From assembly GCA_008632985.1 (NCBI GenBank), contig QPGO01000012.1, positions 124,001 through 188,000 on the forward strand: 64,000 nt of DNA, read 5' to 3'. The stretch is from Psammoneis japonica. Lineage: Eukaryota. The notes beneath the pieces were generated by a model. It did not search any database. It was not told the origin of the DNA and saw only the letters and a program-made list of their open reading frames with translations. A program made the translations under genes and the position numbers. Shown here in pieces: positions 11,247 through 60,550 of the stretch (its first letter is position 1; each line of letters begins with the position of its first letter).

Positions 11247-13405
11247 CTAATCTATAGTATATACATACGCAGCTCCCGTCTGGTTGCCCTTTGCATGTGA
11301 CCCACTTTCGCCGACCCCAACTACGCGGCCGTCTGCAGACAAGGACACGGACCATCCAAATAAACCGTCTGGAGTATTACCAACCATATGTTCACCAACC
11401 TGACTCCATTCTGCGATGTCATCATCAAATTGATAGATCCCAACTCCACCAGCACCTGGTAAGTCATCAGTAACGTTAAACAAACGCTTTGCTACAGCCA
11501 TGACATTTCCGTCTGAGTTTAATGACACCGCATTCCCAAAGCGATCACCTGGCTGATCCGTGACAAGTGTTTGACCCCGTTGAGTCCATTTCGACGTCGC
11601 ACGGTCGTGCTCATAAACATACACTCTGCCTGTAATTATTTTGGTCCACCCTCCTCCAAGTTCACCCACCGCCATGACTAAGCCACTGTCATCAAGAGAA
11701 ACAGAGTATCCATACCGACCCTCCTTCAAATGCCCATTGATAGGATCACCCAAGAGTTCCCACAGTGACGATGCAGAGTTGTATTCGTACACAGAAACTT
11801 GGCCGGCATCCTGTTCATTGGAATCATGTTTTAGCGCCGAAATACCAACAATCGTACCCGAGCTGCTCAAGGAGACGGAATAACCAAGGCGATCTTTAGC
11901 AACTTGACCAATTATAGTCTGTCCAAGTTGTGTCCATGATGGTTTATCACGCTTGTATTGAAACAATCGTACAGAACCGGTGCCCTTGCCATTAATCGAT
12001 TTATCATATCGAGCTCCTACAGCAACAATGTCACCCACGTCCGAGAGAGAGACGGAGCAACCAAAATTCCCTAACGATTCTCTTTCAAGGTCGCTGCCAA
12101 GCTGAACCCACAGATCGGAGACAGTATTGTATTCATAAACTCGAACGTAACCCGATCGACTATTGTATGGTCCTCCCACAGCAAGTATCCTTCCGTCTCC
12201 GTTTAATGAGACAGCATGACCAAACTGGTCTTGACTGAATTCTCCCATTAAATCTTGACCTATCTGCGTCCAATTTTTCGTGGCCTCATTCCACCGAAAG
12301 ACGGAAACGTAGCCTGGTTCTTCGTGAGAAGCCACTTGGCTTCCTCCCACGGCCATGACACTCGCATCCCTTGACAACGAGATAGAGATACCAAATGAGT
12401 CAAACGGACCCGTTCCATTTAAAATTTGACCAAGCTGTTTCCATGCACCATTCTTTGGTAGAGGAACAAATGGAGCTGGTGGAGATGGCGTCGGAGAAGC
12501 CGTACTTGACGGATTCTGACTATTGCTGCCGTCATTGCTGGAAAATATTTCAACTGCAATCACAATGGTGCCAACCAACAACAGGACAATTCCCAATGCA
12601 ATTAAAGGTTTGCAGCGGCTTTTCGTTTTCCTAGCCTCATCATTTGCAACCTCTACATGAGCGTAAGGCATCTGTACTGACTGTCGAAGCCGAACGTTCT
12701 CCTCCTGTAGCTGAGCAACTAGCTCGTCGTCAGTTTGCTGCGCTGGTTGTGCTTCCAGAAGATCCGCGTCTCTATCAGGCCGGGTGGCGGGGGGTGATGA
12801 GGAATATGAATAAACAGTCAACAACTCATGAGAGAAAACGGAGATATCATCGTTTCCACGATGGCGTCGAACCGCTCCTTCACAGTTTACAGCGAAAGCA
12901 CCTGCAACGCGTGTACCATCCTGATCCTCGTCCTCCACTTCATTTTCGATGACCCTATGTTCCGTACGAACTTGACTTTCTTCTTCGTGTTTGACTGTAA
13001 ATGAAAGGTCTGGTGAGATTCGTCGACGATTAATCTCTTCCACTGTTCCTTCAGCCTCTACTTCTTCGACATGATGCGAGAGTGGATGCGTACGGCGTTG
13101 ACTTAGTGCACGAATCTTCCTCTTCGTCGTTGCCTTTGAACGGCTACGTCGATGCATGACATTAACTTCCCTCTTCTTCATTGTCTTCGCACGGTTGATA
13201 CGCTGAGGAAGTTCTTCAGTTGATTCTTCTTTCTGACAGACGATAACCCTGATTTCCTTTTTACTGCTTCAGCTTTTGCTGGTCGTTGCCGATAACGCCG
13301 TTTCTTCGTCACTTTAGACGTTGACACAGCTTCTTCGTCCGCGAATTCTTCTTCATTACTAAGACCACCCCAATCTAAACGGATATCTTTGTCATTGTAC
13401 GACAT
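11247..13405 (-). CDS. Single-pass membrane protein with C-terminal FG-GAP-like beta-propeller (paralogue A1)
   Basis: 644 aa ORF 11247-13181 with TM helix, Pro-rich stalk and about seven FGxSVSLSxDGxxxAVG repeats; upstream ORF 13178-13405 is probably joined via an indel or intron. Confidence 0.85.
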
Positions 13406-13612
13406 GGTGCGTACTTGTTGTCTTGAGAGGACACGAGAAGAACGGAGTGTGTCAGTGTGTGAAGATAGCTTTTTGAGGATTTTTGCGTGTCTTCCGTTCT
13501 GCAGGTTTTGAAATTTACGTGTTGTTTTTTGTCATGCACCGAATTACCTAGGAACCCTACTGTACTGTACCGTACGTAAAAAAGCGCGACCTCAAGACAT
13601 CATGAATACATT

Positions 13613-15529
13613 GTGTCCAAAATGTCAACCGAACCGAAAAGGCATTCGCGGCACTCGGCACTGGGTACTGGGTGCATTTTGCATTGTTGGATCTTTCACC
13701 TCTTTACGGCATGCACCGCTGTGCTACCTGATTCAGATTATCCAAGCAAATCATTGCGAAAGCTCTCATTTCAATGTGAATGTTGCGGTTGCAGTGGGGA
13801 GGATATGACGACTGAAGACATTCAGCGAAGGGTTTCAACAACCTTCGCAGGGGTTCTCCGTTCAGGTCAGGGGACGAGCGAAAACGGGAGTCTCATGTAC
13901 GAACATGAGGTTGGGACAGTTCGTTCCGATCCCTCACAACCGCCTCCTGGTTGTGTTGATGATGGCATGATCATTTTGGAAGCTCAACTAGCGGAATCCA
14001 CTGATGATGATTTAGTTACTCGTCTACAACAACAGAATACTTTTCTTCGGCAATCATTGTGTGTCACTCAAGCTGAAGTTTGTCGCGTCGCGGGACCGAT
14101 TCCCGATGTTCTAACGGCTGAAGAGGTGATGAACGATGATACGCATAAGGGGAAACACCGTCGCAAAAAACTAATCGTTGTGGGGCTTTCAATTTTAGTT
14201 GTTTCTGCAGTCGCGGTCATTGCTGTTGCATTGTCCTCGTCATCTAACAAGAACGGCCCAGCACCAACGACCAACTCTCCCTCGACAAAAAATCCAACAC
14301 CAAGGCCTCCGACGCTTCGTCCGACTCCGATCCCTATTCCTGTCATTCCTGGTAGCTGGGTATCAAATGGTCGAGTCTTACAAGGTAGAAGAATGAATGA
14401 TCTCTTTGGTACCGCCGTCTCTCTGTCACGCGACGCAAATGTCTTGGCGGTGGGGGCAACACAATTCAGCAATCCCGCTGGATATGTTTCAGTCTTTCAT
14501 CGATCGAATCAGAAAGTGCAGATGGGTCAAGATTTGATTGGTGAAGCTGCAGGTGACAATTTTGGCTGGTCGGTGTCGTTGAATGGCGATGGCATGATAC
14601 TAGCTGTTGGAACTAATCCGGAGGAGAGTGGTGGTAACAACAAACCTGGTTATGTTCGAGTGTTTGAATACAGTACCCTCACGGAGCGTTGGATACAGCT
14701 TGGTGGTGACATTGGTGGAGAAGATGTTGGTGATGGGTTCGGGCAGTCCGTTTCACTCTCTGAAGCTGGGGACATTCTCGCGGTAGGAGCCACTGGGGGG
14801 GACACGAACAATGGAAGCGATTCTGGATCGGTTCGGTTGTTTCAATACGGCAACGATACGTTGTCATGGAATCAGCTTGGGCAGGCACTGGTTGGCGAAG
14901 CGGCCGGTGATGCATTTGGTTGGTCAGTCTCCTTAAACAGAATGGGTACAATGGTGGGAATTGGGGCATACTCGAAACACTCGGTGCAAGGCATTGGTGG
15001 TCAAGTATCGGTGTATGAGTACAACGCTACTTCGTCCTTGTGGGAGCCGATAGGTGACCCGATTAACGGACCCGTTAGGTTTGGATATTCTGTTTCGCTG
15101 GATGACACTGGTTTGATCATGGCAGTAGGAGCAACTCGACAAAGAAATGAGAGGGTATTTGTTTATGAGCATGACCGTTCGACGTCAAAATGGACGCAAC
15201 GTGGTCAAACAATCGAAACTCATCATCAAGATGATCGCTTTGGCATTTCAGTATCATTGAGTGGAAATGGAAATGCGGTGGCGGTAGGATTAGATACACA
15301 TAGTGTCAACGGAGTAAAGTATGTGGGTCAAGTTGGAATATTCCAATACAACACAAGCACAAAGGTATGGAATCAGGTGGGAAATCGGATAAATGGCGAA
15401 TCTTATAATGGTCAATTTGGAATTTCTGTGGCTTTGTCAGCGAACGGAAGTGTCATCGGTGTTGGCGCACCAAAAACTGAAGGAACTGGAGTCAGGTCTG
15501 GATCTGCGTACGTTTTTGAGTTAAGTTAG
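13613..15529 (+). CDS. FG-GAP-like beta-propeller membrane protein (paralogue B1), divergent to A1
   Basis: 638 aa ORF with the same architecture; true start may be 13622 or 13805. Confidence 0.85.
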   Translation: MSKMSTEPKRHSRHSALGTGCILHCWIFHLFTACTAVLPDSDYPSKSLRKLSFQCECCGCSGEDMTTEDIQRRVSTTFAGVLRSGQGTSENGSLMYEHEVGTVRSDPSQPPPGCVDDGMIILEAQLAESTDDDLVTRLQQQNTFLRQSLCVTQAEVCRVAGPIPDVLTAEEVMNDDTHKGKHRRKKLIVVGLSILVVSAVAVIAVALSSSSNKNGPAPTTNSPSTKNPTPRPPTLRPTPIPIPVIPGSWVSNGRVLQGRRMNDLFGTAVSLSRDANVLAVGATQFSNPAGYVSVFHRSNQKVQMGQDLIGEAAGDNFGWSVSLNGDGMILAVGTNPEESGGNNKPGYVRVFEYSTLTERWIQLGGDIGGEDVGDGFGQSVSLSEAGDILAVGATGGDTNNGSDSGSVRLFQYGNDTLSWNQLGQALVGEAAGDAFGWSVSLNRMGTMVGIGAYSKHSVQGIGGQVSVYEYNATSSLWEPIGDPINGPVRFGYSVSLDDTGLIMAVGATRQRNERVFVYEHDRSTSKWTQRGQTIETHHQDDRFGISVSLSGNGNAVAVGLDTHSVNGVKYVGQVGIFQYNTSTKVWNQVGNRINGESYNGQFGISVALSANGSVIGVGAPKTEGTGVRSGSAYVFELS

Positions 15530-15548
15530 CTACAAGTTGTGAATCTTC

Positions 15549-17440
15549 TCTAGTCTATAGAATATACATACGCAGCTCCCGTCTTGTTGCCCTTTGCATG
15601 TGACCCACTTTCGCCGACCCCAACTACGCGTCCATTTGCGGACAAGGACACGGACCATCCAAATAAACCGTCTGGAGTATTACCAACCATATATTCACCA
15701 ACCTGACTCCATTCTGCGATGTCATCATCAAATTGATAGATCCCAACCCCCCAGCTCCTGGTATGTCAGTCACATTCAGCCAACGCCTTGCTAGAGCCAT
15801 TACATTTCCATCTGCATTCAATGACACCGCATTCCCAAAGCGATCTCCTGGCTGATCAGTCACGAGTGTTTGGCCTCGTTGCGTCCATTTCGACGTTGCG
15901 CGATCATGCTCATAAACATACACTCCGCCTTTTATTATTTTGGTGGTCCCTCCTCCTAATTCACCAACTGCCATGACTTAACCACTGTCGTCGAGAGAAA
16001 CAGAGTACCCATACCGACCATCCTTCACTCGTCCATTGATTGGTTCACCCAAGAGATCCCTGAGTGATGTTGCCGGATCGTATTCGTATACAGAGACTTG
16101 GCCTGACACCTGTTTACCAGCATTCAGAGCTGAAGCTCCAACAATCTTGCCTGAGCTACTCAAGGAGACCGAATATCCAAGGCGATCTTTTGCAACTTGA
16201 CCATTTATTGTCTGTCCAAGTTGTGTCCATATCGACTCATCACGGTTGTATTGAAACATTCGAACAGAACCTGTACCTTTGCCATTGCTTGTCTTTTCAA
16301 ATCGAGTTCCGACGGCAACAATGTCTCCGACATCCGAGAGAGACACGGAGTAACCAAAGCCACTTGAGGAATCTCTCTCAAGGTCGCTTCCCAACTGGAT
16401 CCACCGATCGGTGAAAGTATCATATTCATAAACTCGAACATGTCCCGAATCACTATTTTGCGGTGCCCCCACAGCGAGTATCATCCCGTTATAGCTTAAT
16501 GACACAGTGTGACCAAACTGATCTTGACTGGATTCTCCAACTAAATCTTGACCCATGGGCAACCACTCCCTTGTGGCTTCATTCCAACGAAACACGGAAA
16601 CGTAGCCTGGTGCTTCGTCAGAAGCCGCCTGGCTGCCTCCAACGGCTATGACACTCGCATCTCGTGACAGTGAGATAGAAGTGCCGAATAATCCAAACGG
16701 TCCCTTTCCGTTCACAACTGGTCCAAGCTGTTGCCATGGACGGTTCTTTGGTAGAGGAACATATGGAGCAGGTGGTGATGGCGTCGGAGAAACCGTACTA
16801 GCCGGATTCTGATTGTTGCCGCTGTCGCTATTGGACAACATGTCAACTGCAATAACAATTGCACCAACTATTAAGAGTACAATTCCGAATGCAATCCAAA
16901 GTCTGCAGCGGCTTTTCGTTTTTCTATCCTCATCATTTGCAACCTCCACATGAGCGTAAGGCATTCGTACAGACTGTCGAAGCCGGACATTCTCCTCCCG
17001 TAGATGAGCAACTAGCTCGTCATCCGATGGCTGTGCTGGTTGTGCTTCCAGAAGATCGACGTTTCTATCGGCACGGGAATGGAGTGGCGGCGTGGAATCC
17101 GAATGAACAGTTACCAACTCATGAGAGAAAACGGAGATGTCATCGTTTCCGCGCTGGAATCGAACCTCTCCTTCACGACTCACAGCGAAAGCACCAGCAA
17201 CCCGTGTATCACCCTGATCCTCTTCCTCCTCTTCATTTTCGATGACGATATGTTCAGTACGAACGTGGCTTTCTCCTTCTTCTTCTTGTTTGATTGTAAA
17301 CGAAAAGTCTGATGACATTTGTCGACGAAGAATCTCTTCCACTGTTTCTTCAACCTCTTCTTCTTTTTCTTCGACATGTTGCAACAGTGGATGTGTACGG
17401 CGTTTATTCATCGCACGAATCTTCCTCTTCGTAGTTGACT
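15549..17440 (-). pseudogene. FG-GAP propeller paralogue A2; premature stop at ~15978, frameshift at ~15750, 5' end deleted
   Basis: Colinear with 11247-13140; GGC TTA has become GGT TAA. Confidence 0.8.
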
Positions 17441-18149
17441 TCGAGAGACCTGGTTATGTTCGAGTATTTGAATACAGTACCCTCACGGAAGATTGGGTTC
17501 AACTTGGCACTGACATTGCCGGAGAAGATGATGGTGATGGCTTCGGGCAGTCCGTTTCTCTGTCAGATGCTGGTGACATTCTCGCGGTAGGAGCCACTGG
17601 GGTTGACACGAGCAATGGAAACGATTCTGGATCGGTTCGATTGTTTCAATACGACCGAGTCACATCATCATGGATCCAGCTTGGACAGACTCTGATTGGC
17701 AAATCTGATGAGGATGCGTTTGGCTGGTCTGTCTCCCTGAACAGAGCGGGTACGGTGGTCGGAATCGGGGCGTACTTGAGACGCGATAGCCAAGTATCTG
17801 TCTATGAATTCAATGCTGCATTGAAGGCGTGGGAACCAGTGGGTGACCCTCTTTCCGGAAGAGATGACTTTGGGATCTCTGTTTCTCTAGATGACACTGG
17901 TTTAATCATAGCAGTAGAAGCAAGTCGAAGGGATGAGAGGGTGTTGGTTTATGAATACGACCGTTCGACAATGAAGTGGACGCAGCGCGGTCAACCAATT
18001 GTGACGAATCAGCTTGACGATCAATTCGGTAAGTCGGTGTCATTGAGCGGAAGAGGAAATGTCGTGGCAATTGGAAGCGAGAGACACAATATTAACGGCT
18101 TTAAAAACGTGGGTCAAGTTGGAATCTTTCAATACGACACAAGCACACG

Positions 18150-21100
18150 TGTTTAAATACTCAAAAGCAGATCAGTAGCGGTAGCTAGTGATGACTAGTA
18201 AGTATTGGGGCGATCAAATAGGCGTTACAATAACAGCTGTAGTAAAATTGTGAGGATGTGAGAGGCTCCTCGTCTCTCATTTAAGACTGATGTTTATGAG
18301 TCATTTTTGGGACAGTGAGTCATAATGTAATGACGTATGAAGTATGATATCTTCACACTCCCTCTCATTTTGATCTCATGCATCTCGAAAATGAAGGTTT
18401 GACGCACTTTGCGCGCGAATCCACTTTTAAAGTATTCCAAACACCTACCAACCCATTACTTTCGGTCGTAACCAAAGCAGAACGTCCAGATTGACCGCTT
18501 TAGTTAGAAAATCGGCCAATTGTGCAGTAGTGTCGATAGAGTGGATTGAGATCTCCTTTCGACTGACACAGTCACGGAAATGGTGCAGCTTCACGTTGAG
18601 GTGCTTGGCACGCGGTCTGTACTTATGTACCTTCGCCATTTCCAGCGCGCCGCTGTTGTCCTCAAAAACTTTGCAGTGCATCTTCGCCGTCGTCGAGTTG
18701 ATTGGACACCCTCGCGACTTCAGTTCCTTCAACATTTCCATCATAGGGATGGCCTCTCGCAAGGCATGCGACAATCCGGTGTGTTCACTTTCGGCACTGG
18801 ACAACGCTGTTTCAGTCTGCAGCTGAGACTTCCAAAGGATCGGACAACCAGCGCAAGTGATGAGATGCCCGTGACGGGATCTTGCGGTGTCTCTGTCGCT
18901 CGCAGCTTCCTTTCGATCCCAATTGCCACTGAAGTCGGCGTCTACGTACACCTCCAAATCCTTTTTGGAATCTGGTTTCAGAATTGCACCTTTGTCTCTC
19001 GTGGCGTGCAGATGTCTGCCTGGCCACCGCATGGCCTCGCCATGTTCTACCTTCGGGTCCGCAGTGAATCTCGCGCACTGGTGCGCAATGCACGCGATGT
19101 CGCTTCGGGTGCATTTCTCCAAGCAATTCAGCTTGCCGATGATCGACCTGCAATTGAAGGAATTGTCAAATGGTCTTGAGTCTGAATGCCTGGATGGGAG
19201 CTTGGACGAAGCTGCAGGTGTGTCTTTTCCGATGACACTCGGTTTGTCAAGTCGCAAGTCTTTCAGAATCTGGTCGATCAGGTGGGGTTGTGTCAGGTGT
19301 GTCATTCCATCCAACTTTCTGGTGATGTTCATGCCAAGGAAATCTTGAATGTCGCCTTCCACCGTGACATCTAACTTTGCTTGCTTGATTTCCTCTATGA
19401 TCTTGTTGATCTCGGATTCATCAGGGCCTGCGAGCAAAGAATCATCCGCGCAGAGAAGGCAAATCGTTTTTCCATGATAAAACACACACTCGTCGACCTT
19501 GGATTGCTCGAAACCCAGCTTGTTGACCAACTTGTCCACGAGATGCTTGCTCCAGACTCGCCCTGCCTGCTTCTGCCCGTGTGCACTCCGATGCAAGCGC
19601 AGAACATGATCCTTGGTGTTGGTGCCTTCGAGCTCAAATCCGGGCGGAATCTCCATGTAGAGATCCTTTTCGACCAGTGCTTGAGGAAAAGCGAGGACAC
19701 AATCCAGCTGCTTTGAATGCCACCCATGCACTCCCACTGAGGCAAGCAGCAGCTGCATTGAATTTCGTGATGCAACCGGCGCATGTGTCTCATCGTAGTC
19801 TTTTCCTTTTCTCATCCTCGAGCCGTCAATGTCAAGTCGCGCTTTCCACTTCTTCACCTTTCGGGTGTGCATGTCTCGCTTTCGCTTCATTTGCCACACT
19901 GCAGGTGGTGCTTTTCTGTCTTGTTTCACCTGTGATCTTGGAATGATGGAGCAGCCTTCCATTTTCCATTTGATCCTTCACCTCTTTTTGCATCGCCTTG
20001 AGGAACTCCTTGCGGTCCGGTTCTTTCATGGCTTGGTGCATGCACATGGTGTCAGGATCTGCTGATGCTTTGCAGGCAAGGAGGGGATTTGCGACTTCTT
20101 CTTGGAGGGCTTGCGAGTCTCGAGGATGCAGTGCGGCCAAGCACAGCAGTTCTCCTTCGACGCCTCCTTCAGTGTCTTTCTTGATCTCAGTCTCCATGGA
20201 CTCAATCAATCTGCTGACCGGTTGGCTCTTGCGCCCTGATCGTGTCACTTTTGGTTCAGCATGACCGTCTCGTGCTTGATCAGACTCGCCCTCATGTGGA
20301 GGTGCTTCTAGAGATTCAGTCCTTTTGGACGCGTTGGCCTTGTTGTCATTGGGCTCTCGGCGCATCTCTCGTTTGGACACCGATTGGCTGTCGGTTGCTG
20401 CAGTGTCGCCATCTTGTGGCCGTGTTAGTTGGTCAGCCCAACGAATGGTTCTTCGTTTCTTGCCTTGCTCCACTCCCTCTGAAGCTCGTGCGCGCTTCTT
20501 CTTGGGACGATCCGGAGCACTTGTGGGAGCCGTTTTGGTCTCGCCACTCTTCTTGGTTCCTTTTGTCTCCCTCTGAGCAACGAACCCGGCTTTTATTTGC
20601 CACAGAGAATCGCAAGTGTCTTGCTTCAGCGCATGGAATGATGGATCAAATTTTGCGTGGAACTGTGGACTTGCCAGTGCCGACTCTCGGTCGAGTGCCA
20701 GGGCCACGTTCTTGCCATGTTGTGGGCTTCGGCCTGAGTGTGTTCCAACCCTTGATCTGTCTTTCCATTTGTGGTGCGGCAGACCTGATTGCAATGCGGA
20801 GTCCAATGCGCACACTGGGCAACCAAATGGTTTCCAGTGCTTTGGATTGGTGGCAACTTTCGTGTTGGAAAACAGCTGGAGTGGGCTTGATCGGTCTTTG
20901 TGTTGGAGGTTGGGTGCATGATTGATGGCATCACAGGCCATGCGAATCGCGCAGGGTCATAAATTTGCCGCAATGCACTTCTTCCAGCGGCTGTTGGCAT
21001 GGATCAACATTGTTCGGGCGAGCTCTTGGAGCTCTCGGATCCGTCGCTCCGCCGTGCCATTTTGGTGATGAGCGCCTACGGCAGCGAACGTCAGTTGTTG

Positions 21101-35539: not shown

Positions 35540-37930
35540 TAAAATTTTGCTTGACAGCCAAGTTGAAGTTGAAGCCATGAGAATGACTGTCAACTTCTCG
35601 AGGATGACTAGATGGACTGCACCACACGACCTTCGTTCACGTCCCCAGCTCTTGGAGCAGAAGCCAACCAACACCACCAAGAGAGTGTTCAAAACACAAA
35701 ATCCAAACACTGTCAAAAGCCTCACACAACTCTCGCTGCATTGTTTGGAGGATGATGTGGTGCACAGCACTCCTCCACCCCTGTCCTTGGCTCGAGAGCC
35801 AAGATTTGAGCACTCCTCTCTGTGTCCCCCCCCCCTGCCTGTGGCCTGTCCGAACATTGGGGTGAGAGGCAGTTTTTGCAGGAAAGACAGGCAATGTTGC
35901 AGCATAAGATGCACCAACGATTGTGGACAATGTGGCAAATTTGCACTTGTGTCCTGGGTTGAGTGTTGAGGGCCTCCTTGCTGTGGTGTGTGCTCACAAT
36001 TTTCAGCTTCTGCACCCGGTTGAGACAGCAGCGGTGCTCACAATTTTCAGCTTCTGCACCCGGTTGACACAGCAATGGTGGTCAACAGCATTGGGGAATG
36101 TGTTTGTGATCCATGCAGTGAGTTTGGAGTGAGTGAGATCAAATTTGGGCCAGTCGACAAGGTGCAAAACTCCAACACAAAAGCAAGGAAGTCACGGCAC
36201 GACACTCAAGAGAGGGGAGAAGAGGTGTCGCTCAAAGGCGCAAAAGCCAAGAAGTCATCAGTGATCCAAGAATGCAGGCCAGAAAGTCATCAGGAATCCA
36301 AAGATGTGTCTTGTGTGTTGGCAGATTGTGGCAAACAAGCCAGCTGGATGAGGGCCAAAGAAACAATCTCTGGAAGGCATTGCTTTGAAAAGGTGCCAAG
36401 GAGGGTCTTCTGAAAGAGGGTGTGGCAAGGTTGTGTTGGGGTTGTAGAGACCAAGCATGTGACAGTCAACAAGCCATGAAAAAACTCCAACATTGGTCCA
36501 GGAAAATGCAGGCAAGAACACAGCTGAGTGCAGAAGCACAAAAAGGAGTTGTGAAGGAGGTCCACGGCACCATTTCTGAGTCGGGGTGACAGGCAGATGG
36601 CTGCACGGAAACCACAAGAAAGATTGGTGAGCATGTCAGAAGAGAATGTTCAAGCCAGAAATGCAGGTGCTGAATTCTCTGAGGCAGGAGAGCATGCCAA
36701 AAGAGCTGGAGCATCCATCAGGAGACACCGCATTGGAGAAGAACTGACAAGGCAGTCTGGGCAAGCAGTGTGACCACTGTGTAAAACAGAGCATGATCTG
36801 CAAGACTTGGAAGGCAAAGGGACACAACAAAATTGTGGGACAGTGCACAAAGGCCACATGTCACAAGATTGAAAGAGTGATGAAGTTCACAAGGGTCACA
36901 AGGGTCATGAAGGAGTGGGGGGCGTGGCAGCACCATTGGAAGTTCTCAAGTCGATCTTGTTCAACAATGCAAATGAGAAAACATGCTTGCATGTCCAGGT
37001 GGTCAAAGCTTGGAAGCAGTTGGCACTCACTTGTCAAGATGAACCAGGGAAGGTGCTGCAAGATCATTGCAATCAGCTTGTGAGCATTGTTGAGATGGTC
37101 AAAATGTCCTGCAGGCAGGAGCAGAGTTGTCCTGGAAGAAATCACCAGCCAAGAAAGAAGAAAGAAGATCAGGGGAACTGCCTGGTGCATGCCTGTGAGG
37201 AGCTCACATGCAACATCACCCAGTGGCATGGGGGGAGTGCAAGGAACAGATGTGGAGCTGACTGTGTCACGTGGGTCAGGAAAGGGATGGGGTTGGCGGA
37301 GTTGGGGGGCTGGGGTCTTGGCAAGCTGGGGCTGCAGTTTGGTGGAGCAATGGGTGAGTTGGTCAGCAAGTGACTTGGTTGTTGCAAAGCCAAGGCTTTG
37401 CAGGCCCAACTGTGATGGAGTTGAAGTGTGATGGGTCAAGCCGAAATGCGTGGCAGATGTGTTTTTCCAAAAGTGGCGGCAGTGATTGGGGGGCGGCAGA
37501 TGGGGGCTGTTGTGCACAGGTGCACAGGTGGTGCGGGCTTCAGGATGTTAGAAGGAGGACTTGGCAGTTTAAGGCAGGGCCAGCGGGGTGGGGACGGGGT
37601 GTTGCTGATCCGCTCCGAAGAGCAAGTGGTGCGTCAAACAGCCGGGGGCGCCGAAGCAGTGGAGGATGGTGAAGGGGGTGAGGCAGATTCGGGCATCGTT
37701 GAGGGTGGGTGTTACAATAGCTTCGTGTTGGGTTTCATGTGTTCCGTTGAACTTCTGTTTGGTGCTCACGTGGTGTGCCTTGGTAGAAGGGTTGAGAGTT
37801 TCCTCACGGCATCATTGCCTGTCTGGCCGCCCAACCCGGATGTTTGGAACATGAAAAGGAACGAGAACGAACCCGGATGTGTCACTGATGGCTGACAGAG
37901 CTCAAGCATCAACGTCACACTGTTGCCGTG
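35540..37930. mobile_element. Unclassified TA-depleted relic; contains a ~43 bp tandem duplication at 35990-36075
   Basis: Near absence of TA, stop-poor Cys/His-rich ORFs in many frames; no family motif recognised. Confidence 0.5.
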
Positions 37931-38041
37931 CAATTTCAATTTTTGAAGTCGGCACTTCTCGTCTTCTGCGACGCTGTCATTCTTTGCCAACCACTGATTG
38001 GAAACAAGCAACGGCTCTTTAGGAAATGGAAAGGTAATTCA

Positions 38042-40126
38042 ATGGAGATTATAGACGCAAACAAGAATGAGTCGTCCACAACCAGGAAGAGCGCGATAGA
38101 ATATGATCCGGGTAGTCCCTCGTCTCTGTCCTCATTTAATTTCCCAAACAATGTCAGTAAAAAGAAGCAACTCTCACAATTGCCCAATGAATTTCTCAGT
38201 GAAGACCCGACAAGACCACTAAAATACATCGATGACCATGGAGAACATTACAAATACGCCTTGAAGCCCATGTTTTATTCCGTCATTTTCATTCTCATGG
38301 TGGAGCTGCTGGAGCGATTCTCGTTTTACGGGATCAACTACACACAAGCATCGTACTTGACGGGGGCATACGACAAGCACTGGAACGCCGACATGGAAGC
38401 TGTGGAGGCTTCTAGTTATGTTTCTGTTTCGACTGCGATTGCATACACGGCTCCCTTCCTCGGGGCCTTTTTAGCGGACACAATACTTGGCGAATTCAGG
38501 GCGATTCTTTTGGGGTCGCTCGTCTTGTACCTGCCGGGCCTCCTTTGATCGCCATGACGACAGTTCCTGGATTGTTGGGAGATACATTTAATAAGACGGC
38601 ACTTCGAATTGGATTGCTGGTGCTCTGGCCGATTGGTACTGGCATTGTCAAGTCGGTTGTAAATGTGTTTGGTGCAAAACAACATCATCCGATTTTGCAG
38701 GCTTCGCTGATTGAATCTTATTATGTCAATTTCTACATGTGCATCAATATTGGGGCCTTGGCGGGAGGTATCATTGTCCCAATCATGGCTCAACATAACA
38801 TCACCCTTGCCTACTTTATTCCGGTGGTAATTTTGAGCTGCGGGGTGGCGTGTTTTGTAGCTGGGTCTTCTCGTTATGTGAGAGCCAGACCACATGGTGA
38901 TTTGTTCTCCAAGGACTCGGACCCATCGGATAACGGTCTTGGTCTCTCAGTCATTGCCCGTGTTTCCATGTTGATTGTTCCCTTTAATATTGCGTACAGC
39001 CAAATGGCAACCACCTTTATCGTGCAGGGAACTGTGATGAAACGAGCGTTTGGGTTCATTGATGCGGCCTCCATGAACAATGCAGATGCCGTCAGCGTTT
39101 TGCTTTTCGGGTATCTTGTTGGTAACAATTTTATCCTGCCTTGGCCAAGAGAGGAATCAAGCTTTCAACGACTCATAAGTTTTCTATTGGAAGTGTTTTG
39201 GGAACCATGGCGATTGGATGGGCGCTAATGGTGGAGTATAAAATTCATGCAGCATATGAAAGTCGCGGCGAAAAAGTGAACATTCTGTGGCAGTCGTTGG
39301 CTTACATTCTGATTGGCGCCGGAGAGATATTTGCCGTTTCAGCGGCATATGAAACAGCCTTTACCGTCGCTCCAGTGAAGAAAAAAGCATTGGCGAGCGC
39401 TGTGAACTTGTTTTCGTAGGTGGGATTCCAAACATTTTGTGTATTGGTCTTTACAATATATGTCACGTCTGGTTTAAAACAAAAGGGGAAACGCAAACAT
39501 AACGGATTTGCATGACTATGCTACTGCTCAAGTCGCCAAGTACTTTTGGGTTCTTTTGGCATTGCGCTCTTTGGAGTCATTATTAATCTGCTGCCTTTTG
39601 TACGAAACTGGGTCGCGTCTGTTGAAGAAATCGCTTCGGAAGCCATCAAGACTCCCATGTCGACTCCTCGCTCGACGCCGAAATTGCAGCAGCGACGGAA
39701 GAACGACAAATGGATAATGAAGACGACGAGGAAGAGCCATTGCTACAGGCGGCCAAAAAGCATCAAGATTACCTCAAGTATGGAAGCGGTCCGGTCCTGT
39801 ACAAGCACGGATCCATGAGGGCAGGTATGTTCAACAAAATGGTAAAACCAAAGCCTGTGTCCCTGACGAGGTATCAAAAGTATTTGAAGTATGGAAAAGG
39901 ACCGGTGCTTTACAAAGCAAGTTCAATGAGGGCGGGCGTCGAGCTTGCCCATCCTCACGAAGCGAGTAGGCCATCGAGAACTCCGCCACGAACGCCACCG
40001 AGATCTGCGGAACCACCGACCAAGCGAGAGAAAGGAAGAAGGCGGATCACTGCTGGTGTGAAATATCTACTCATAGAAACCGCCTGCTATTCTTTAGTTT
40101 CCCCAGACAAGATAATAGAATGTTAG
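38042..40126 (+). CDS. POT/PTR (NPF) proton-coupled peptide/nitrate transporter, split by several indels
   Basis: ELLERFSFYG (ExxER motif), GAFLAD.ILG, GTGIVKS, FYMCINIGAL, WQSLAYILIGAGEIF. Confidence 0.88.
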
Positions 40127-49095: not shown

Positions 49096-51225
49096 ATGGC
49101 ACGCCACCGAGGGAGGCACAACAGTGATAATGCAAAGGAACGAGCTGGGCATGACAACTTTACGAATGTGGGGAAGACAGCCACGTCCTTGCCTATCTAT
49201 CGTCGAAGACATGGCGCTCCATCGTTGATGAAGCTGGCGGTTACTCTTATTACTGTATGCATGCTGGCTGCAACCACTTTCTGGGCTTCTTCCCTTTCTC
49301 ACTGGGACAAATGGGATCACGATAATCGCATGCATCTCATCTTTATTCTGAAAGGCATCGGGAAGGATAAGTTGAGGCGGAACCTTGATATTGCTGTCGG
49401 ATCCCTCCTGACGCACTTGGGACCACCCCCTTTGACAATCCATTTTCTTGCCGACGAGGAAAGCTGGATCTATGCTCGAGGACGATGCCTCAAGTTGCAT
49501 CAAGAGAGCAATGCTCTAGTGGACTTTGTGTATCATAATTTGGACAATGTCATCTCACAGCTTCGTAAAAACGGAACGTATTCAATCATTGAGAACCTGC
49601 GAAAACTCTTTTGCAAGGGATATACCAATGATGATGTTTTCCTCCTTTCTACCATGCTGCATCATGTGCTGCCTGTTCCAAAAGTGATCCAGCTGGACTT
49701 GGATATCATGTTTCATGAGAGCGTCCAGGGCTTGTGGAGTCTCTTTGACGACTTCAGTCAGGAGAGCATAATGGGCATTGCATCGGAAATGCAGCCCGTA
49801 TATCGCAATGTCATGTGGGAGTATCGCAAGAGTCACCCTAGTGTTGGTGCACCAGGAAAAGGGGCGGGATTCAATTCGGGCGTTCTGCTGCTTCATCTTG
49901 ACCGAATGAGAGAATCGAGTCTCTACAGTGCACATTTGGAAAACCCGACGTCACTCGTGAACAAGTACCGCATGCACAAGGCTCATTTAGGTGACCAGGA
50001 TTTCTATTCATTGTTGGGCTGGGAACATCCAGAGCTCTTTTATCGACTTGATTGTGGATGGAATGTTCAACTGTGTACGTGGTGGCGAGATCACGGAGGA
50101 TATGCCAAGCAACAGGAGTTGTTCAATCAGTATCATGATTGTGTTAGCAAGACAAAGCTATCGCATGGTAATTGTGCGACATACATCCCTAGCAGTGCCA
50201 TGTATCTTGAGCCGAAAGAGCAAAATCATCGGGCTCCTAAAAGTGATGGCAAAGATATCAACTCAGCGAACAATTTACGCACAGAGACAGTGTTTCAACT
50301 TCAGAAAGTGAATTATGCTCGACACAAGATGATCCCCAAAGATGGGATACACGTCGCAACAACTATATGTGGGGATCGTTTGTTCCTTGAGGAAGCATTG
50401 GTTATGTTCAGGTCAGCACTCATGTCAACAGAAAGTCATCTAATCTTTCATGTTTTTGCCGAGGACTCCCTTCATTCTCAGTTTCAAAAGCGCGTTGACG
50501 AGTTTATCCCAGATTCTTTCCACCCCGACTTTGATCTTATTCTGTATTCCGTTGAGTACCCGCCTGGGATACACGCATCTGCCTGGAAACGTCTTTTTAA
50601 ACCGTGCTCTAGCCTTCGAGTATTCTTACCATATCTCATCAACGAAAAGGTTGCCAAGAATATCATTTACGTCGACACTGACGTTCTCTTCATCCGACGT
50701 ATCGATGATCTCTGGGCATTGTTTGCTTCCTTCCGCCCTGCCGAGATTGCTGCCCTGACGCCGGAGCACGAGGTAGACTTCATGAGCTGGTACAAGCGTT
50801 TCGCGAGACACCCGTACGTCCCTCCGCGTGGTGTGAATTCTGGCGTAATGCTCATGATGTTAGATCGCATGAGGGCAGATGACTGGAAAGCAAAGATGGT
50901 AGACTACCTCTCCACATATCGGCTTAACATTACCTGGGGTGATCAGGATTTGATCAATATTTACTTCCACATGGAGCCAGACAAGTTGCGGATACTGCCT
51001 TGTCACTGGAACTACCGACCTGATCACTGCCAGTATGGGGAAAACAATTGTCCCTCGGCCGAGCATGATGGTGCTTTCATTTTGCACGGAAACCGCAAAT
51101 CCTTTCATAATGTGACTCGATACCCTCAGTTTGCTTCGATGTATAACGAAATATCATCACTTCAGTGTGAGAAAAGGCCATGCACCAATGTGACGTCTTA
51201 TGTGCTCGGGAGCAGGGCCTGTTAG
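49096..51225 (+). CDS. Type II membrane tandem GT8 glycosyltransferase: XXYLT1-like domain fused to a GXYLT1/2-like domain
   Basis: Domain 1: QLDLD, EMQPVY, GFNSGVLLLHL, HLGDQDFYSLLGWEHPELF, WNVQLCTWWRDHG. Domain 2: WKRLFKPCSSLRVFLP, YVDTDVLF, PEHE, WYKRFARHPY, GVNSGVMLM, ITWGDQDLINI, WNYRPDHC, HGNR. Intronless. Confidence 0.93.
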   Translation: MARHRGRHNSDNAKERAGHDNFTNVGKTATSLPIYRRRHGAPSLMKLAVTLITVCMLAATTFWASSLSHWDKWDHDNRMHLIFILKGIGKDKLRRNLDIAVGSLLTHLGPPPLTIHFLADEESWIYARGRCLKLHQESNALVDFVYHNLDNVISQLRKNGTYSIIENLRKLFCKGYTNDDVFLLSTMLHHVLPVPKVIQLDLDIMFHESVQGLWSLFDDFSQESIMGIASEMQPVYRNVMWEYRKSHPSVGAPGKGAGFNSGVLLLHLDRMRESSLYSAHLENPTSLVNKYRMHKAHLGDQDFYSLLGWEHPELFYRLDCGWNVQLCTWWRDHGGYAKQQELFNQYHDCVSKTKLSHGNCATYIPSSAMYLEPKEQNHRAPKSDGKDINSANNLRTETVFQLQKVNYARHKMIPKDGIHVATTICGDRLFLEEALVMFRSALMSTESHLIFHVFAEDSLHSQFQKRVDEFIPDSFHPDFDLILYSVEYPPGIHASAWKRLFKPCSSLRVFLPYLINEKVAKNIIYVDTDVLFIRRIDDLWALFASFRPAEIAALTPEHEVDFMSWYKRFARHPYVPPRGVNSGVMLMMLDRMRADDWKAKMVDYLSTYRLNITWGDQDLINIYFHMEPDKLRILPCHWNYRPDHCQYGENNCPSAEHDGAFILHGNRKSFHNVTRYPQFASMYNEISSLQCEKRPCTNVTSYVLGSRAC

Positions 51226-51622
51226 TGTTACAGTGACAAACATTTTGAAGCGAAAGTCTTTGGATGCTGATTCTTCATGAAATGCTGGAGCAAAGAAGCT
51301 CAAGTTCAAAATTCTCTGGAAGCGGTGACCCATGGATTAGAGCGGACTGTTCACCGCATGGCTGGAACCCTCGCACTCGCCGGCGGCACGTTCACGGCAT
51401 TCAATGGGCTTCTTCAATCCGACCAAACCGATTGTTCTCTAATTTCCTGAATCAATAAGTAGCTCCTGCTAGCTAGATATCCGAAGAGAAAGAGGCCGAA
51501 AGGAAACAGGCTGGTGAGAGTCGTCTACTCTCTAGAGTAGTAGTCTACCGGTACGACTCTCTCTACTAGAGCTAGAGCTCTCTACTCTAGCTCTACTCTA
51601 GCTAGAGAGAGTACAAGTAGTA

Positions 51623-52131
51623 CAAGTAAAAAACCGGTCTCTGTCCTCTTCAGACCGGTTTGTCCTCTTCCTATTTCCTCGTACTTTCGCCGTGTTGTTT
51701 TTCATAACGCTAATTTAACGCTTACACAGTTTTACACAGATTTACTATCAAAATTTAGTACCAATAAAAAACCGAATTGAGTCCTTATGACCGAATTGAG
51801 TCCTTATCGTAGAAATGTATGGACTTTCTACGAGTGAGATTTGGTAGCTTTCAACACATCATTCAACAATTCTCTACGTAAATGCCGTACAAATTCAACA
51901 GAGACCGAATTGAGTCCTTATCGGGCGAAGGATTGTTGAAATGTACACAAATTTCGATAGTGAATTGTTGAAAATAATAAGGACTCAATTCGGTTTTTTA
52001 CTGGTACATTTACACAGAAACCGGCTGTCCTCTTGGGCTGGCGAAATCTGTGTAACGTGTGTAGAAAATATACCAATCAATCGCGTAGAAACTGTGTAAA
52101 AAATGAAGAGGACGAACCGGTTTTTTACTTG
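51623..52131. mobile_element. Nested MITEs with TA TSDs (outer 51623-52131, inner 51761-52004), Tc1/mariner-like
   Basis: Outer TIR CAAGTAAAAAACCGGT..GTCCTCTTCA; inner TIR CCA[A/G]TAAAAAACCGAATTGAGTCCTTAT; each flanked by TA. Confidence 0.85.
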
Positions 52132-52424
52132 TAGTAGTAAGTACAGTACGTACCGTACGTGCCAACGGGTCGGCGGAGGGACGCCTCATTTGTGAAGACT
52201 TACTTACGTACTCGCGCGCACGCGAGGCACGCGTTGCGGTTGGGAGACTGATCTGTGATCTCGGTCAGAGTGCAGAGTGCAGATGAGACGATGACAGCGC
52301 GTTGCTATGTTGCTGTGATCGTTCTTCCTTGCTGTTGCTTGAACGTGGAATACAATCGATGACTTGGACGCGTTGAATGCCTTGCTGAGACGGAATCGAT
52401 TTTTGCCGTGCACTCGTCGATCGA

Positions 52425-55427: not shown

Positions 55428-58419
55428 CTAGTAGAGGTCAGCCCTATCAGAGGCGTAGAAGCGTTGTCCTCCAGCCTGAGTTAACATGCTCTCAGTGAGG
55501 CGAAGGCGGCTTCCTGATCGGATAATGTGGCCGTACTCTTCGTACTCGAAGAGCTCGTTCTCTTTCTCCATTTGACGGATTTTGGCGACATCCGCCTCCA
55601 CGACCTTGCTATCCGCATGCATAAGTACCACACTACCAAGACCGGTGAATAAATCCACAGTGTAATCGACCTGTGATCCAACCTTGACACCGGTTTCGAG
55701 GTAAACAAACGATGGGAGCTCCTTGATGACGTCGAACCCAGGGGTGCTCTTGACTTTTCCACGCGAAAATGAGACTAGGATAACTTCTTGGCCTGAAGCT
55801 TTGAAGGGACTGGGTGGAATTTCAGGTAGAATCTGGAACTGCTGCTTGTCCAAATAGGCGTCAACAGTAGCCTCCACCTGGGTGTGGCCGCCTGTGAGAG
55901 CACGAGTGAGTGGTCTCCAACTGCCGTCGCCGCCGTGCGTACGGCATTTGACTTCAATCAGACATGGTCCGCTTGGTGTCATGATACACTCTCCATGAGT
56001 AGGACCATTCTTGATGCCCATCGCATCCAGCACTTTGCGCATGTAAGGGATGAGGATCTTTGCGTCAGGAGATTCGGGGTCCACGGGGACACTACCAAAG
56101 TATACAGACGCGGCACCATTTGCAGGGCGCTTCTGGTACTCCCAAATCATGAGGGTCTTGTGACACCATCTCTTGACACGTGGTCAAGAACATATTCTTT
56201 TCCTCGCAAGAACTCTTGGCACAAAATACTCTGTTTGGATTCCAGCAAGAGCGTGCAGTGCTCCTTTGCTTCTTCCGCATTGTGGCAGAGCTTCACCCCA
56301 TCCAACCCAGACGATTCGGTGGGCTTGACCACAATTGGATAAGACTCGCTGAGAAGGAATTCTTCAACCTCCTGGAGGCTACTGCCTCCGGCCTGGCGTA
56401 TTGTGCGGAGTCCAGCAGCCTTGGCGAGCTCTTGCTGAACCTTTTTGTCGCGACGGTTTGGAACCGAAGTACCGTTCGAACGAACTTCAAGACGCTCCGA
56501 GAGGGCATCCGTGAGTTCGACACCTATTTCTCCTCCGGTGATGCATGCGACAATGCGGAATTGTCCAGCGGCCTTGTACAATTGTTGCACCGTATCGGCA
56601 AGAGTGTCGCCCTCTTGGACTTGATGGAGCATTTTCATGTTGGCGCACTCGAGAGGAACATGATTCTTCATTTCCTTTGGGAAGTCCTTTGTCCAGAGGG
56701 TAATGACTTGGTAGGTGCGATTAAGAATCTCTTTCATAACCAAGTATCCGGTGGAATAGGGGTTTACCATCACCACAATCTCCTTGGAGGCATCCACAGT
56801 CGTCATGCGCTTTACAAGCGGCCCTCGCAACTCGGGGCGATCGTTGGAAGCGATGCGGACCAGCGATGGCCCATCCGAAGAAAAGACACGACGGTGGCTC
56901 TTTTTACCATCAAGAGTCTTCACTTCTGAAACCGACTCGAGGCATACAGAGTCACCTCTAGGCCTCTTGAGGGCCTCCACCTTGGTCTCGTACACAAAGA
57001 AACCATTGATTTTTTCCATGTAACGGCAGAATTCTACATCTTTTTTAAGGACTTCATCGTCTTCGTTGATAAGAATCACTCCTCCAGGGGTGGTACCAAG
57101 GTCAACCGTGTACTCTGCCCTTCCACCGACGTGGACGCAACACTGGAGACTCACAAACGATGGTAGTTGCTTAATCACTTCATATCCAGGCATCGATTTG
57201 ATGGTTCCCTCTGAGTTGGAAACAAAGATAACTTCTTGACCGGACGCAAGAAACGGGCTAGGCGGCTTGTCTGGCAATGCCAAGAAAACGTCTGGGTCAA
57301 GGTAGGCATCCACACTTGCATCGACTTGAGAGTATCCGCCAGTCAAAGCTCGAGCCAACGGCACCCAGTTTCCGTCGCCGCCATGGGCACGGCAATTCAT
57401 TTCCACGAGACATGGTCCGTCTGGTGTCATCATTACTGAAGCGAGAGAGAACAAAAGAGCGACAATGTGAGCATCAGAGTGATCAAAAGAGGATCCCGAA
57501 AAAAAGTAAAGGTTAACACTCCATTCAAAGACACATTTCTTCGTACCTTCTCCGTGAGATGGTCCATTTTTTAACCCCAACGCATCCAAGACGCCTCGCA
57601 CATAGGGAATTAGAATTTTGGCTTCTGGAGATTCAGAATCAACCGGAAGGCAACCAAAGTAGACAAAGGCCGAACCGTTGGCCGGGCGCTTATCGTAGAC
57701 CCACACCATGGTAGTCTTGTGGACGCCATCACGAGAAACGTGATCAACGACATATTCCTTGCCCTTGAGGAATTCTTGACAGAGCACCGATGGACATTCA
57801 CCTCCGTTCACCATTTCGTAGTTTTCCATCAACAAATTAAAGTGTTCCGTCGCTTCCTCGTACGTATGGCAGAGCTTGACACCATCCGAACCGGCAGACT
57901 CGACGGGTTTCACGACAACGGGATATTCCTCCTTTTTGAGAAAATCAACAACGTCATCCAGCACTCACCACCGGCCTGGCGTACCGATCGAAGTCCATAT
58001 TCCTTGACAAGTTCTTGTTGGATTTTCTTGTCACGACGGTTCGGAATGTCCGTGCCATTGGTAAGAACACCCATTTTTTCCGACAGCGCATCGGCAAAGT
58101 CGACACCCGCCTCTCCACCCGCCATGCAAGCCACAATGGGCATTTCTCCAGCGATTTTGCGAATGTTTTCAATGACATCTTCGACCGACTCGTCGTCACC
58201 TTGTGTAAGCTCGGCAAAGTATTCGAGATCCTTGCATTTCTCGGGAACGTGCAATTTCATTTCTTCGGCAAAGCCCTTGTTCCATATCGCAACGACCTTG
58301 TATCCACGACGAGAGATTTCTTGTGAAATCAAAGCCGCGGTTCCATAAGGAGTCACAATGACAACAATTCCATGATTGGCGTATGGAGACGATCCTTCGG
58401 ATGATGAGAAGGGTGCCAT
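55428..58419 (-). CDS. Tandem double ATP-grasp domain enzyme (amino-acid ligase-like); intron ~57439-57547, indels near 57965 and 56150
   Basis: Two copies of NRRDKK.QQEL, YP.VVKP.ES.G.DGVKLC, CQEFL.GKEYV.DHVSRDG, GP.HGE, CL.E..CR.HGGDG. Confidence 0.88.
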
Positions 58420-59086
58420 GGTGGTGTTTTTTGTAGCAGCAGTGGGAGGAGAAGTACTAAGCCTTGCTTCGGCGGTAGCAGCGTCTCGATGTTGTTTCTT
58501 TTTGACCCAACGCACAGCGAATGGTTCAGACGACATGTGAGAACAAATATCGTCGCCGAGGAAGCGTTTGAAAATTCAGAAATCGATTGGTGGGTGTTGT
58601 TTGGTGAGATGGCCACGTAAGAGACGTGAATGAAAAAAAGAGACGGAGTTGTTTGAACTTTCAATTTTTCTGCGAATCAAGATGTGGCGAGCAAATCGAA
58701 AAAAGATTTGCAATTTGAAATTTATACGAGATCGAATATAAACAATTCTCGAATTGACTGGCTGTCATCCATCTCCCAACGGTTGCATTCCCGAACTCCC
58801 ATAATCACGTGTTCTTCTCCATAAGTAAAATCGAATTATTTAGCCGCCTATTGCCTGCCTTTTCTGTCCTGCGCCTCACCCTCACATTTTGCGCGCAAAA
58901 TCGAAATCGCGTGGCAAGCGACCGAAGCTCGAAATTGCAACACTTGCACGTCGTCGTTTGAGATCCACACAGCATTCCCAACCATCAGTCTCTGGGACAG
59001 AGACTTGCTGCACTTGCACGAAAAGTGGTCGCTATTGTCACGTGTCTCGAATTTTTTCGGCTCATTTACTCCAAAAGACCGAAACC

Positions 59087-60550
59087 ATGGGAGGCGAATC
59101 AGGAATGGTCCACAGATGTGGATTGACGGAGATTATCATTTTCATCTTGGCACTTGTTTCTGGTACAGCATGCTCCATTTGTTCCAAGACAATGATGGAA
59201 CTGCACGGCATTGGGATTACCGGACAAGAAGAAGTGTTTGAAAAACCGATTTTTCAAACCTTTGGCATGTTTGTGGGGATGCTTTTTGGTTTGGTCATGC
59301 ATGCTGCCGTTGTAATCTTTCAAATTCCCTTTCCCGGATATGACTTTCCATCATCAAACGATACAGACATTGAACAGGAACTGCCTAAAAACAAGTATGC
59401 TACCGAATCCGATGCGCTGATTCCACCCAAGAATGGAGCCAAGCAGCAACTTGCTACTACGGTTGCTTCTCCTGCTCCCATTGCTCCCGACACGAAGGAA
59501 CCAATTCCGGTGTGGATGTACTTTTTTCTGGCAATTCCGTCCATTTTTGATTTGGGCGCCACTGCACTCTGCATGATGGGTCTACGGTATATTGATGTTA
59601 GTATCTACCAGTTGTTGCGTGGTTCGGGTATCATTTTTGTGGCCCTCATGAAACAACACATATTGAGAGACAAGCTGTTTGGTTTTCAATGGGTTGGCGT
59701 TTTTTGGAATGTTGTCAGTGTCTGTTTGGTGGGGTCTACCGCCATTCTTGCCTTTGACGCTGGATCGTCGGACGAAACCAAGCTATCGGGTTCACACGAG
59801 GGTGAAGCACTCTTGGGTGTTGTGTTGGTCTTATGCGGAGCGTTTGTGCAGGCATGTCAATTTGTATTTGAAGAAAAGGTCATGACCATGGATATTCCGT
59901 CGCCTCCCTTGCTCCTTATCGGTATGGAGGGATTATGGGGGACTGTGCTTTGCTTGCTTGTGGTGTATCCCTGGTTATTATCTGCCAGGTACCGATCATG
60001 GATCCTACGAAGACCCGTGGAATACTTGGGAAATGTTCCGAACCTCAACCACCATTCAATTCTCGTTCGTGGTGTATTTCCTGGCGATCTTTTGTTACAA
60101 CTTGTTTGCGATTCTTGTCACGTACATGCTAAACAGCGTGTGGCACGCCATTCTTGACAACTTTCGTCCCATTACTGTTTGGGGTACGGACTTGTTTACA
60201 TACTATGTCATTTACAAAGCATCTTCGACGCAGTTTGGTGAAGCTTGGACTCAGTGGAGCTATCTGCAGCTGGCAGGAATGGTGGTGTTGCTGTACGGGA
60301 CAGCCGTGTACAATGCACCGAATGCAGGATCGATCCTGCTCCAAGGCAAGTGGTGGGATTTCTTTCTTGACTTTCGAAGAGAATACCGTGAAATTGAGCA
60401 AATGGAGGAAGAAGCAAGCTGGATGCTCATTGGGAAGAAATGCAAAAGCAGTTCCTTGCTAAAAAGGGTACAAACTCTTTTTACGGGGAACGATCGCCCT
60501 TCCAATCCGTCCACACACAGGCCCTTCGTGGTCTAGCATCACCGAAAATT
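59087..60550 (+). CDS. SLC35F6-like DMT/nucleotide-sugar-transporter family membrane protein (indel near 59970)
   Basis: PIFQTFGMFVGM, IPSIFDLGATAL..GL.YIDVSIYQLLRGSGIIFVAL, QFVFEEK, LIGMEGLWG. Confidence 0.85.

Follow-up and report, generated by a model that had tools for sequence, protein, structure and literature searches.

A gene joining two GT8 domains in a putative EGF glycosylation locus

The 64,000-nucleotide stretch of Psammoneis japonica contig QPGO01000012.1 analysed here (positions 124,001 to 188,000 of the forward strand, hereafter the window) contains a gene, P0001, whose single open reading frame (ORF) encodes two glycosyltransferase family 8 (GT8) domains in succession, the first of the XXYLT1 type (X) and the second of the GXYLT type (G). 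A gene for a POGLUT1 orthologue, P0002, with a GT90 domain (T90), lies 1.2 kb downstream on the same strand, and a protein with epidermal growth factor (EGF) repeats, P0123, is encoded upstream. Passages of PMC7291291 give the pathway order as POGLUT1, then GXYLT1/2, then XXYLT1, and P0001, P0002 and P0123 therefore bring all three pathway steps plus a candidate substrate together within 12.3 kb (Table 1).

Table 1. Positions in the window of the fusion gene, its parts and the two pathway-related genes
Feature	Position	Strand	Description
Whole fusion gene P0001	49096..51225	+	709 aa: tail, anchor, XXYLT1-type domain, linker, GXYLT-type domain
Basic N-terminal tail	49096..49224	+	residues 1-43 (MARHRGRH...), presumed cytosolic
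Single hydrophobic anchor	49225..49293	+	residues ~44-66, ending FWASS; from hydropathy scan; aligns with the N-terminal anchor of P0124
XXYLT1-type GT8 domain	49321..50193	+	residues 76-366; from PDB match, motifs, alignment and tree
Polar linker	50194..50331	+	residues 367-412, 46 aa
GXYLT-type GT8 domain	50332..51222	+	residues 413-709, ending at conserved Cys709
POGLUT1 orthologue P0002	52425..53693	+	422 aa, GT90, own signal peptide, ends -RFEL
Candidate substrate P0123	41358..42293	-	311 aa: signal peptide, six EGF repeats, Ser/Lys-rich tail

The P0001 frame runs from an ATG to a TAG with zero internal stops, and given the stop-codon frequency of the window itself (0.033), the probability of 709 consecutive codons without a stop is ~5e-11. 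Its residues ~44-66 are the sole stretch above a Kyte-Doolittle value of 1.6 in 19-residue windows, Pfam assigns two stretches to GT8 (PF01501, E 8e-27) and nothing to any other family, and the codon-position GC content of the linker (0.52/0.33/0.41) is similar to that of both flanking domains. We read P0001 as a real single gene, predicted to encode a type II membrane protein. A preliminary description, made from the sequence alone, had reported one uninterrupted ORF of ~709 residues with a single transmembrane anchor and a linker of ~40 residues between the domains; the frame and the anchor are borne out, and the linker is present at a measured 46 residues. Met45, immediately ahead of the anchor, may be an alternative translation start, which would make the basic tail optional, and Arg3/Arg5 of this tail may form an endoplasmic reticulum (ER)-retention signal.

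One frame could still yield two enzymes, separate as they are in animals, if the chain were cut in the linker or the G part were started internally, and the fusion would then only co-ordinate expression. The linker is polar throughout and has no homology, and Met411 stands immediately ahead of the G domain. A G domain begun at Met411, however, would carry no signal or anchor and would stay cytosolic. Fused forms with different linkers moreover recur in several orders, as described below, which argues that the covalent link itself has been selected. We regard two separate products as quite unlikely, and treat P0001 as one chain with two domains.

The two domains belong to the XXYLT1 and GXYLT types

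Passages of PMC10709319 name the DxD motif, the G-loop and a C-terminal His as GT8 landmarks. In the X domain these are D201/D203 (DLD, 201-203), N260-S-G262 and His357, together with GDQD at 299-302; the G domain has D527/D529 (DTD, 527-529), N581-S-G583, His664 and GDQD at 615-618. The DxD and GDQD motifs which the preliminary description had read in each domain are thus in place.

The best PDB match of the X domain was mouse XXYLT1 (4wlg, E 1.6e-58, residues 109-366), and the positions aligned to the DxD, the HLGDQD and the C-terminal His of the mouse enzyme are all kept. In a 39-row XXYLT-type alignment that includes the X domain itself, it retains 18/18 invariant columns. The Leu of the mouse HLGDQD, also kept here, is a residue which we take to have a role in xylose selectivity; the roles of XXYLT1 residues beyond the GT8 landmarks are likewise assumed. 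LARGE1 also aligned with P0001, through its GT8 part and over residues 184-340 only (E 1.7e-15), and together with the lack of a GT49 match in Pfam this upholds the earlier statement that the protein is not LARGE.

Named animal GXYLT1/2 proteins were matched by the G domain at E values of about 1e-76 to 1e-82; it shares 42-46% identity with 11 of them and keeps every invariant column of the alignment. Folded alone from a 52-row alignment, the G domain gave an AlphaFold model with a predicted local distance difference test (pLDDT) score of 92.1. The nearest solved folds to this model were the xylose-transferring GT8 domains of LARGE1 (the top match) and XXYLT1, and no GXYLT structure was present in the PDB copy searched.

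In MAFFT alignments, single-domain sequences of both types piled up on one domain of the fusion, which is why the model covers the G domain only. A FastTree phylogeny with 183 rows of GT8 domains resolved the XXYLT type and the GXYLT type as separate clades, each with a support of 100, and the two window domains fell into the expected clades. The X domain is accordingly nearer XXYLT1 than other GT8 subfamilies, by PDB match and by tree, and the XXYLT1-like and GXYLT-like assignments proposed at the outset agree with these results.

A POGLUT1 orthologue and consensus EGF repeats accompany the fusion gene

P0002 matched PF05686 (GT90/CAP10) with an E value of 2e-94 and human POGLUT1 with 7e-129, and it is 48-61% identical to animal proteins named POGLUT1, whose sources range from sponges to vertebrates. 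In passages of PMC5543122, Asp133 of POGLUT1 is described as the catalytic base and Phe104, Arg107, Ala172 and Gln240 as acceptor-binding residues. The aligned residues of P0002 are D160, F130, R133, A200 and Q268, respectively, so that all five are kept.

The O-glucose consensus is given as C1-x-S-x-(P/A)-C2 in parts of PMC5543122 and PMC3675014. The EGF repeats of P0123 are of the calcium-binding type and show C-x-S-x-P-C in 6/6; the Asx-hydroxylation pattern was likewise found in 6/6 and the O-fucose pattern in 0/6.

Nested inverted repeats that resemble miniature inverted-repeat transposable elements lie at 51618-52136, in the intergenic region separating the fusion gene from the GT90 gene. 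Their arms comprise 31 nt, 97% complementary, at 51758/51977 and 21 nt at 51618/52116, and their terminal motif has no other occurrence in the window.

Pathway domains are fused in several orders in other proteins

The 386 proteins that our searches returned were sorted by domain content, using BLAST with the three window domains as references. Most carried one domain (G only, 176; T90 only, 119; X only, 53), and the others were G-T90 (20), G-T90-X (7), G-G (4), X-G-T90 (2; P0124 and P0014), T90-T90 (2), G-X-T90 (1), G-X (1; P0015) and X-G (1; P0001 of the window itself). By our count 34/386 join at least two pathway domains, a figure which takes in the two T90-T90 tandems and not the four G-G proteins. 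The tandem GXYLT-GXYLT proteins P0003, P0004 and P0005 include one named from the annelid Dimorphilus gyrociliatus.

The cluster representative P0124 (1050 aa, X-G-T90) is colinear with P0001 residues 47-684 through the anchor, the linker and the G domain, with 40% identity over 668 columns (E 3e-138) and the same anchor end, FWASS. At residues about 255-260 it has GVQD where the family has GDQD, and its X domain may therefore be impaired. P0014 (841 aa, cut at the N-terminus) shows the same order. P0015, which is EukProt CFRG8433T1 (719 aa), has the reverse order G-X; its prefix CFRG presumably denotes Creolimax fragrantissima. Among the best 150 representatives of an exhaustive profile search, both GT8 types occurred together only in P0011 and P0124.

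Scanning contigs of genomes and metagenomes by pattern returned no relatives of P0124. A metagenome scan with the X-G alignment gave 61 loci, of which the top one, L033, had 50% identity and short X-only fragments reached 61%; none of the 61 was a close relative of the window gene, and of the loci checked, the fused ones had the architecture G-T90-X. To call the fusion unique is thus overstated, given the two X-G-T90 proteins, the G-X protein and the Acidobacteriota fusions with GT90 described below. What stands is that the shown names of the X-G-T90, G-X and Acidobacteriota fusion proteins carry no fusion annotation, and that the titles and abstract starts of the literature found describe neither natural GXYLT/XXYLT fusions nor bacterial homologues.

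Acidobacteriota loci combine the three enzymes with EGF repeats

Fusions of the types G-T90, G-T90-X and G-X-T90 were found in some soil bacteria, namely in metagenome-assembled genomes (MAGs) of Acidobacteriota. The G-T90(-X) fusions came from 10 species-level MAGs (titled Thermoanaerobaculia in 5 cases, Holophagales in 2 and Acidobacteriota in 3), in loci with a GC content of 0.66-0.71, two of which lie on contigs of 7.7 and 8.4 Mb; the remaining 22 loci of that scan were weak, ordinary GT8 matches.

Six-frame translations of 13 bacterial loci (L001-L010, L033, L034 and L048) were scanned for EGF-like repeats. Such repeats were present on the strand of the enzymes within a few kb in 13/13, and C-x-S-x-[PA]-C occurred in 33/37 repeats. 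At L010 (6112-9674) the EGF gene is flanked by the G-T90 gene on one side and by a separate X gene on the other, and at L001 a secreted protein with three consensus repeats is encoded 3 kb upstream of the triple fusion. This recurrence of the enzymes with EGF repeats across domains of life is the strongest indirect support for the function proposed below.

Two further observations concern these loci. Upstream of the triple fusion, L001:723-6004 comprises an RVT_1 reverse transcriptase, the EGF protein, a GT61 gene and a major facilitator superfamily transporter; GT61 is the family of the EGF O-GlcNAc transferase EOGT. At L002, L004, L006 and L048, the main G-T90-X genes are preceded by another G-T90 pair, situated ~4 kb upstream of the main match and divergent from the window domains (28-37% identity).

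Relationships of the three window domains

IQ-TREE phylogenies were built for X (45 rows, hand-picked from the 183 and run under a mixture model), G (46 rows) and GT90 (39 rows), and their support values deserve caution because the searches were of the 'quick' kind. The window X domain fell in a 7-row clade (Shimodaira-Hasegawa-like approximate likelihood ratio test, SH-aLRT, 99) with P0124, one bacterial X-only protein and four Acidobacteriota X domains. The X domain of P0015 lies far from it, so that P0015 is probably an independent fusion. The G tree gave the window G domain no resolved place; when it was constrained to the P0124/P0014/Acidobacteriota clade, the likelihood was 8.9 units above that of the free search (p value of the approximately unbiased test, p-AU, 0.70). 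A pairing of this domain with the second Dimorphilus domain, seen with FastTree, was not reproduced under the mixture model. The window GT90 grouped with two proteins (100) inside the animal-type clade, which is separated from the fused bacterial/P0124 type by a long branch (1.48, support 100). Taken together, the three trees make the X-G gene look related to the fused module, and its neighbour a canonical POGLUT1.

These affinities raise the question of whether the X-G gene is a recent bacterial transfer, or the decaying remnant of an X-G-T90 triple fusion, that stands outside the secretory glycosylation of its host. Such an origin would suit the clustering of the X domain with P0124 and bacterial X domains, the better likelihood of a G domain held with the fused clade, and the colinearity of P0124 with P0001 from the anchor to the G domain. 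Against it, the 709-codon frame is intact with all landmarks, the GC content and codon-position pattern of the gene agree with those of neighbouring genes, and the adjacent GT90 is of the animal type and not of the bacterial fused type. We consider this explanation very unlikely and read P0001 as a probably functional gene of host secretory glycosylation.

Proposed function of P0001

Our preferred reading, to which we give a probability of roughly 65%, is that P0001 is a bifunctional lumenal xylosyltransferase, with two intact GT8 domains of the retaining type, that would complete Xyl-Xyl-Glc on EGF repeats. P0002 would supply the O-glucose, the distal GXYLT-type domain would attach to it the first alpha-1,3-xylose, and the membrane-proximal XXYLT1-type domain would add the second; with both xylose steps in one singly anchored polypeptide, the product should be Xyl-Xyl-Glc-O-Ser. 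Folded EGF repeats would be xylosylated successively on the lumenal side of the secretory pathway, probably in the ER or Golgi, and the secreted six-EGF protein P0123 is a likely substrate. The fusion may keep both activities in one place at a 1:1 stoichiometry, let little mono-xylosyl intermediate escape and carry the glycan through to the trisaccharide. True substrate channelling, which the preliminary description had suggested, is at most an inference.

Several points weigh against this assignment. A single mRNA, the start codon and an unprocessed linker are predictions from the genomic frame. The G domain stops at Cys709, whereas the aligned animal GXYLTs continue for 25-35 residues beyond that Cys; these residues are poorly conserved, and a search for an intron that would restore the tail found nothing convincing past the P0001 stop codon. 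The C-terminus of P0002, -RFEL, is not a canonical KDEL-type signal (its two closest relatives end in -RNEL and -KDEL). Within the 64-kb window, the P0123 gene is on the opposite strand, 7 kb upstream and with another ORF between, and genes for the synthesis of uridine diphosphate (UDP)-xylose were not seen.

One or both domains might also have shifted in donor or acceptor specificity, in which case P0001 would build a different glycan from the Notch-type trisaccharide. Identity to the characterised enzymes is only ~42-50%, the window branches are long in both the X and the G tree (1.06 and 1.26), and the animal C-terminal tail is missing from the G domain. Both domains nevertheless keep all family-invariant columns, the residue aligned to the Leu of HLGDQD is retained, and a POGLUT1 orthologue with its acceptor-binding residues stands beside the fusion gene, as do EGF repeats of exact consensus. 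We judge such a shift rather unlikely and retain the bifunctional xylosyltransferase as the preferred assignment.

Other sequences in the window

A multi-pass membrane protein with weak SLC35/nucleotide-sugar-transporter similarity (E 7e-5) is encoded 5 kb downstream of the GT90 gene (58889-60157, +), in a reading frame that seems broken near its end. Between the two, a large gene on the minus strand (55428-58536) encodes repeated ATP-grasp domains; it looks bacterial-like, with PRK07206 (E 1e-88) ranking first among its NCBIfam matches and a dapdiamide synthase-like match next. A POT/PTR2 transporter gene (37889-39419, +) is divided among three frames that overlap, suggestive of short introns or frameshifts.

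Four adjoining genes at 11247-18156 encode FG-GAP_2/Kelch-like repeat proteins, and among the 120 homologues listed for the FG-GAP protein, the named ones are all bacterial, chiefly Bacteroidota proteins of the type IX secretion system (T9SS; Flavobacteriia, Saprospiria). A copia-type reverse transcriptase ORF (18445-19962, -; RVT_2, E 9e-38) adjoins a stretch of higher GC content (20-26 kb, 0.53-0.55) with overlapping long ORFs and no family match. Rfam and tRNA scans of the window gave no matches. Five window proteins had no identical entry in the protein collection consulted, and the clusters matched by a GST of the window and by the copia reverse transcriptase were of mixed taxa, Bacillariophyta being named for the third reverse transcriptase cluster only. 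A low coding density, the copia-type reverse transcriptase and secretory-pathway proteins give the window a eukaryotic look.

Comparison with known systems and implications

In animals, GXYLT and XXYLT1 have been investigated as two distinct enzymes, which modulate Notch and assist the folding of EGF proteins. P0001 shares with mouse and human XXYLT1 (xyloside alpha-1,3-xylosyltransferase; PDB 4wlg and related entries) the GT8 domain of GT-A fold, the N-terminal membrane anchor and the DxD, HLGDQD and His positions, but continues into a second GT8 domain, whereas the animal XXYLT-type matches in the sets examined are single-domain. Its G domain resembles animal GXYLT1/GXYLT2 (Drosophila Shams) in identity, invariant columns and clade, and differs from them in lacking the C-terminal tail and an anchor of its own, the latter because it is placed after the XXYLT1-type domain. 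LARGE1/LARGE2, bifunctional xylosyl- and glucuronyltransferases, offer a parallel as type II membrane proteins with two glycosyltransferase domains for consecutive steps, the first a xylose-transferring GT8; their second domain, however, is a GT49 and they make a repeating polymer, whereas both domains of P0001 are GT8.

Among the fused proteins, P0124 and P0014 share the X-G order with P0001 but carry GT90 in the same chain, whereas in the window GT90 has a gene to itself, encoding a protein with its own signal peptide that falls in the animal-type clade. EukProt CFRG8433T1 is likewise a eukaryotic fusion of both GT8 types, in the reversed order. The Acidobacteriota operons (Thermoanaerobaculia, Holophagales; L001-L010) resemble the window in having the three enzyme types and consensus EGF genes in one locus, and differ in the order G-T90(-X), in signal peptides rather than a type II anchor, in a GC content of 66-71% and in their bacterial hosts.

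A broader and more tentative proposal, to which we would give somewhat less than even odds, is that the three enzymes and their consensus EGF substrates form a transferable module, shared by a probably non-animal eukaryotic lineage and Acidobacteriota and fused in nearly every order, and that the window presents a module-type X-G fusion working with a canonical POGLUT1. The 'Notch-type' O-glucose trisaccharide would in that case be neither animal-specific nor tied to Notch, and bacteria would glycosylate their own EGF repeats likewise.

The adjacent POGLUT1, the consensus EGF protein and the parallel bacterial operons add to the value of the fusion itself. A single chain completing the trisaccharide could help the enzymatic synthesis of glycosylated EGF domains, and would offer structural studies of the GXYLT step a compact target. 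Natural GXYLT-XXYLT fusions, some of them also with POGLUT1, constitute strong 'Rosetta stone' evidence that these steps are functionally coupled, and the repeated occurrence of these enzymes next to consensus EGF repeats, both in a eukaryote and in bacteria, suggests that the role of this glycan in EGF folding or stability is older and broader.

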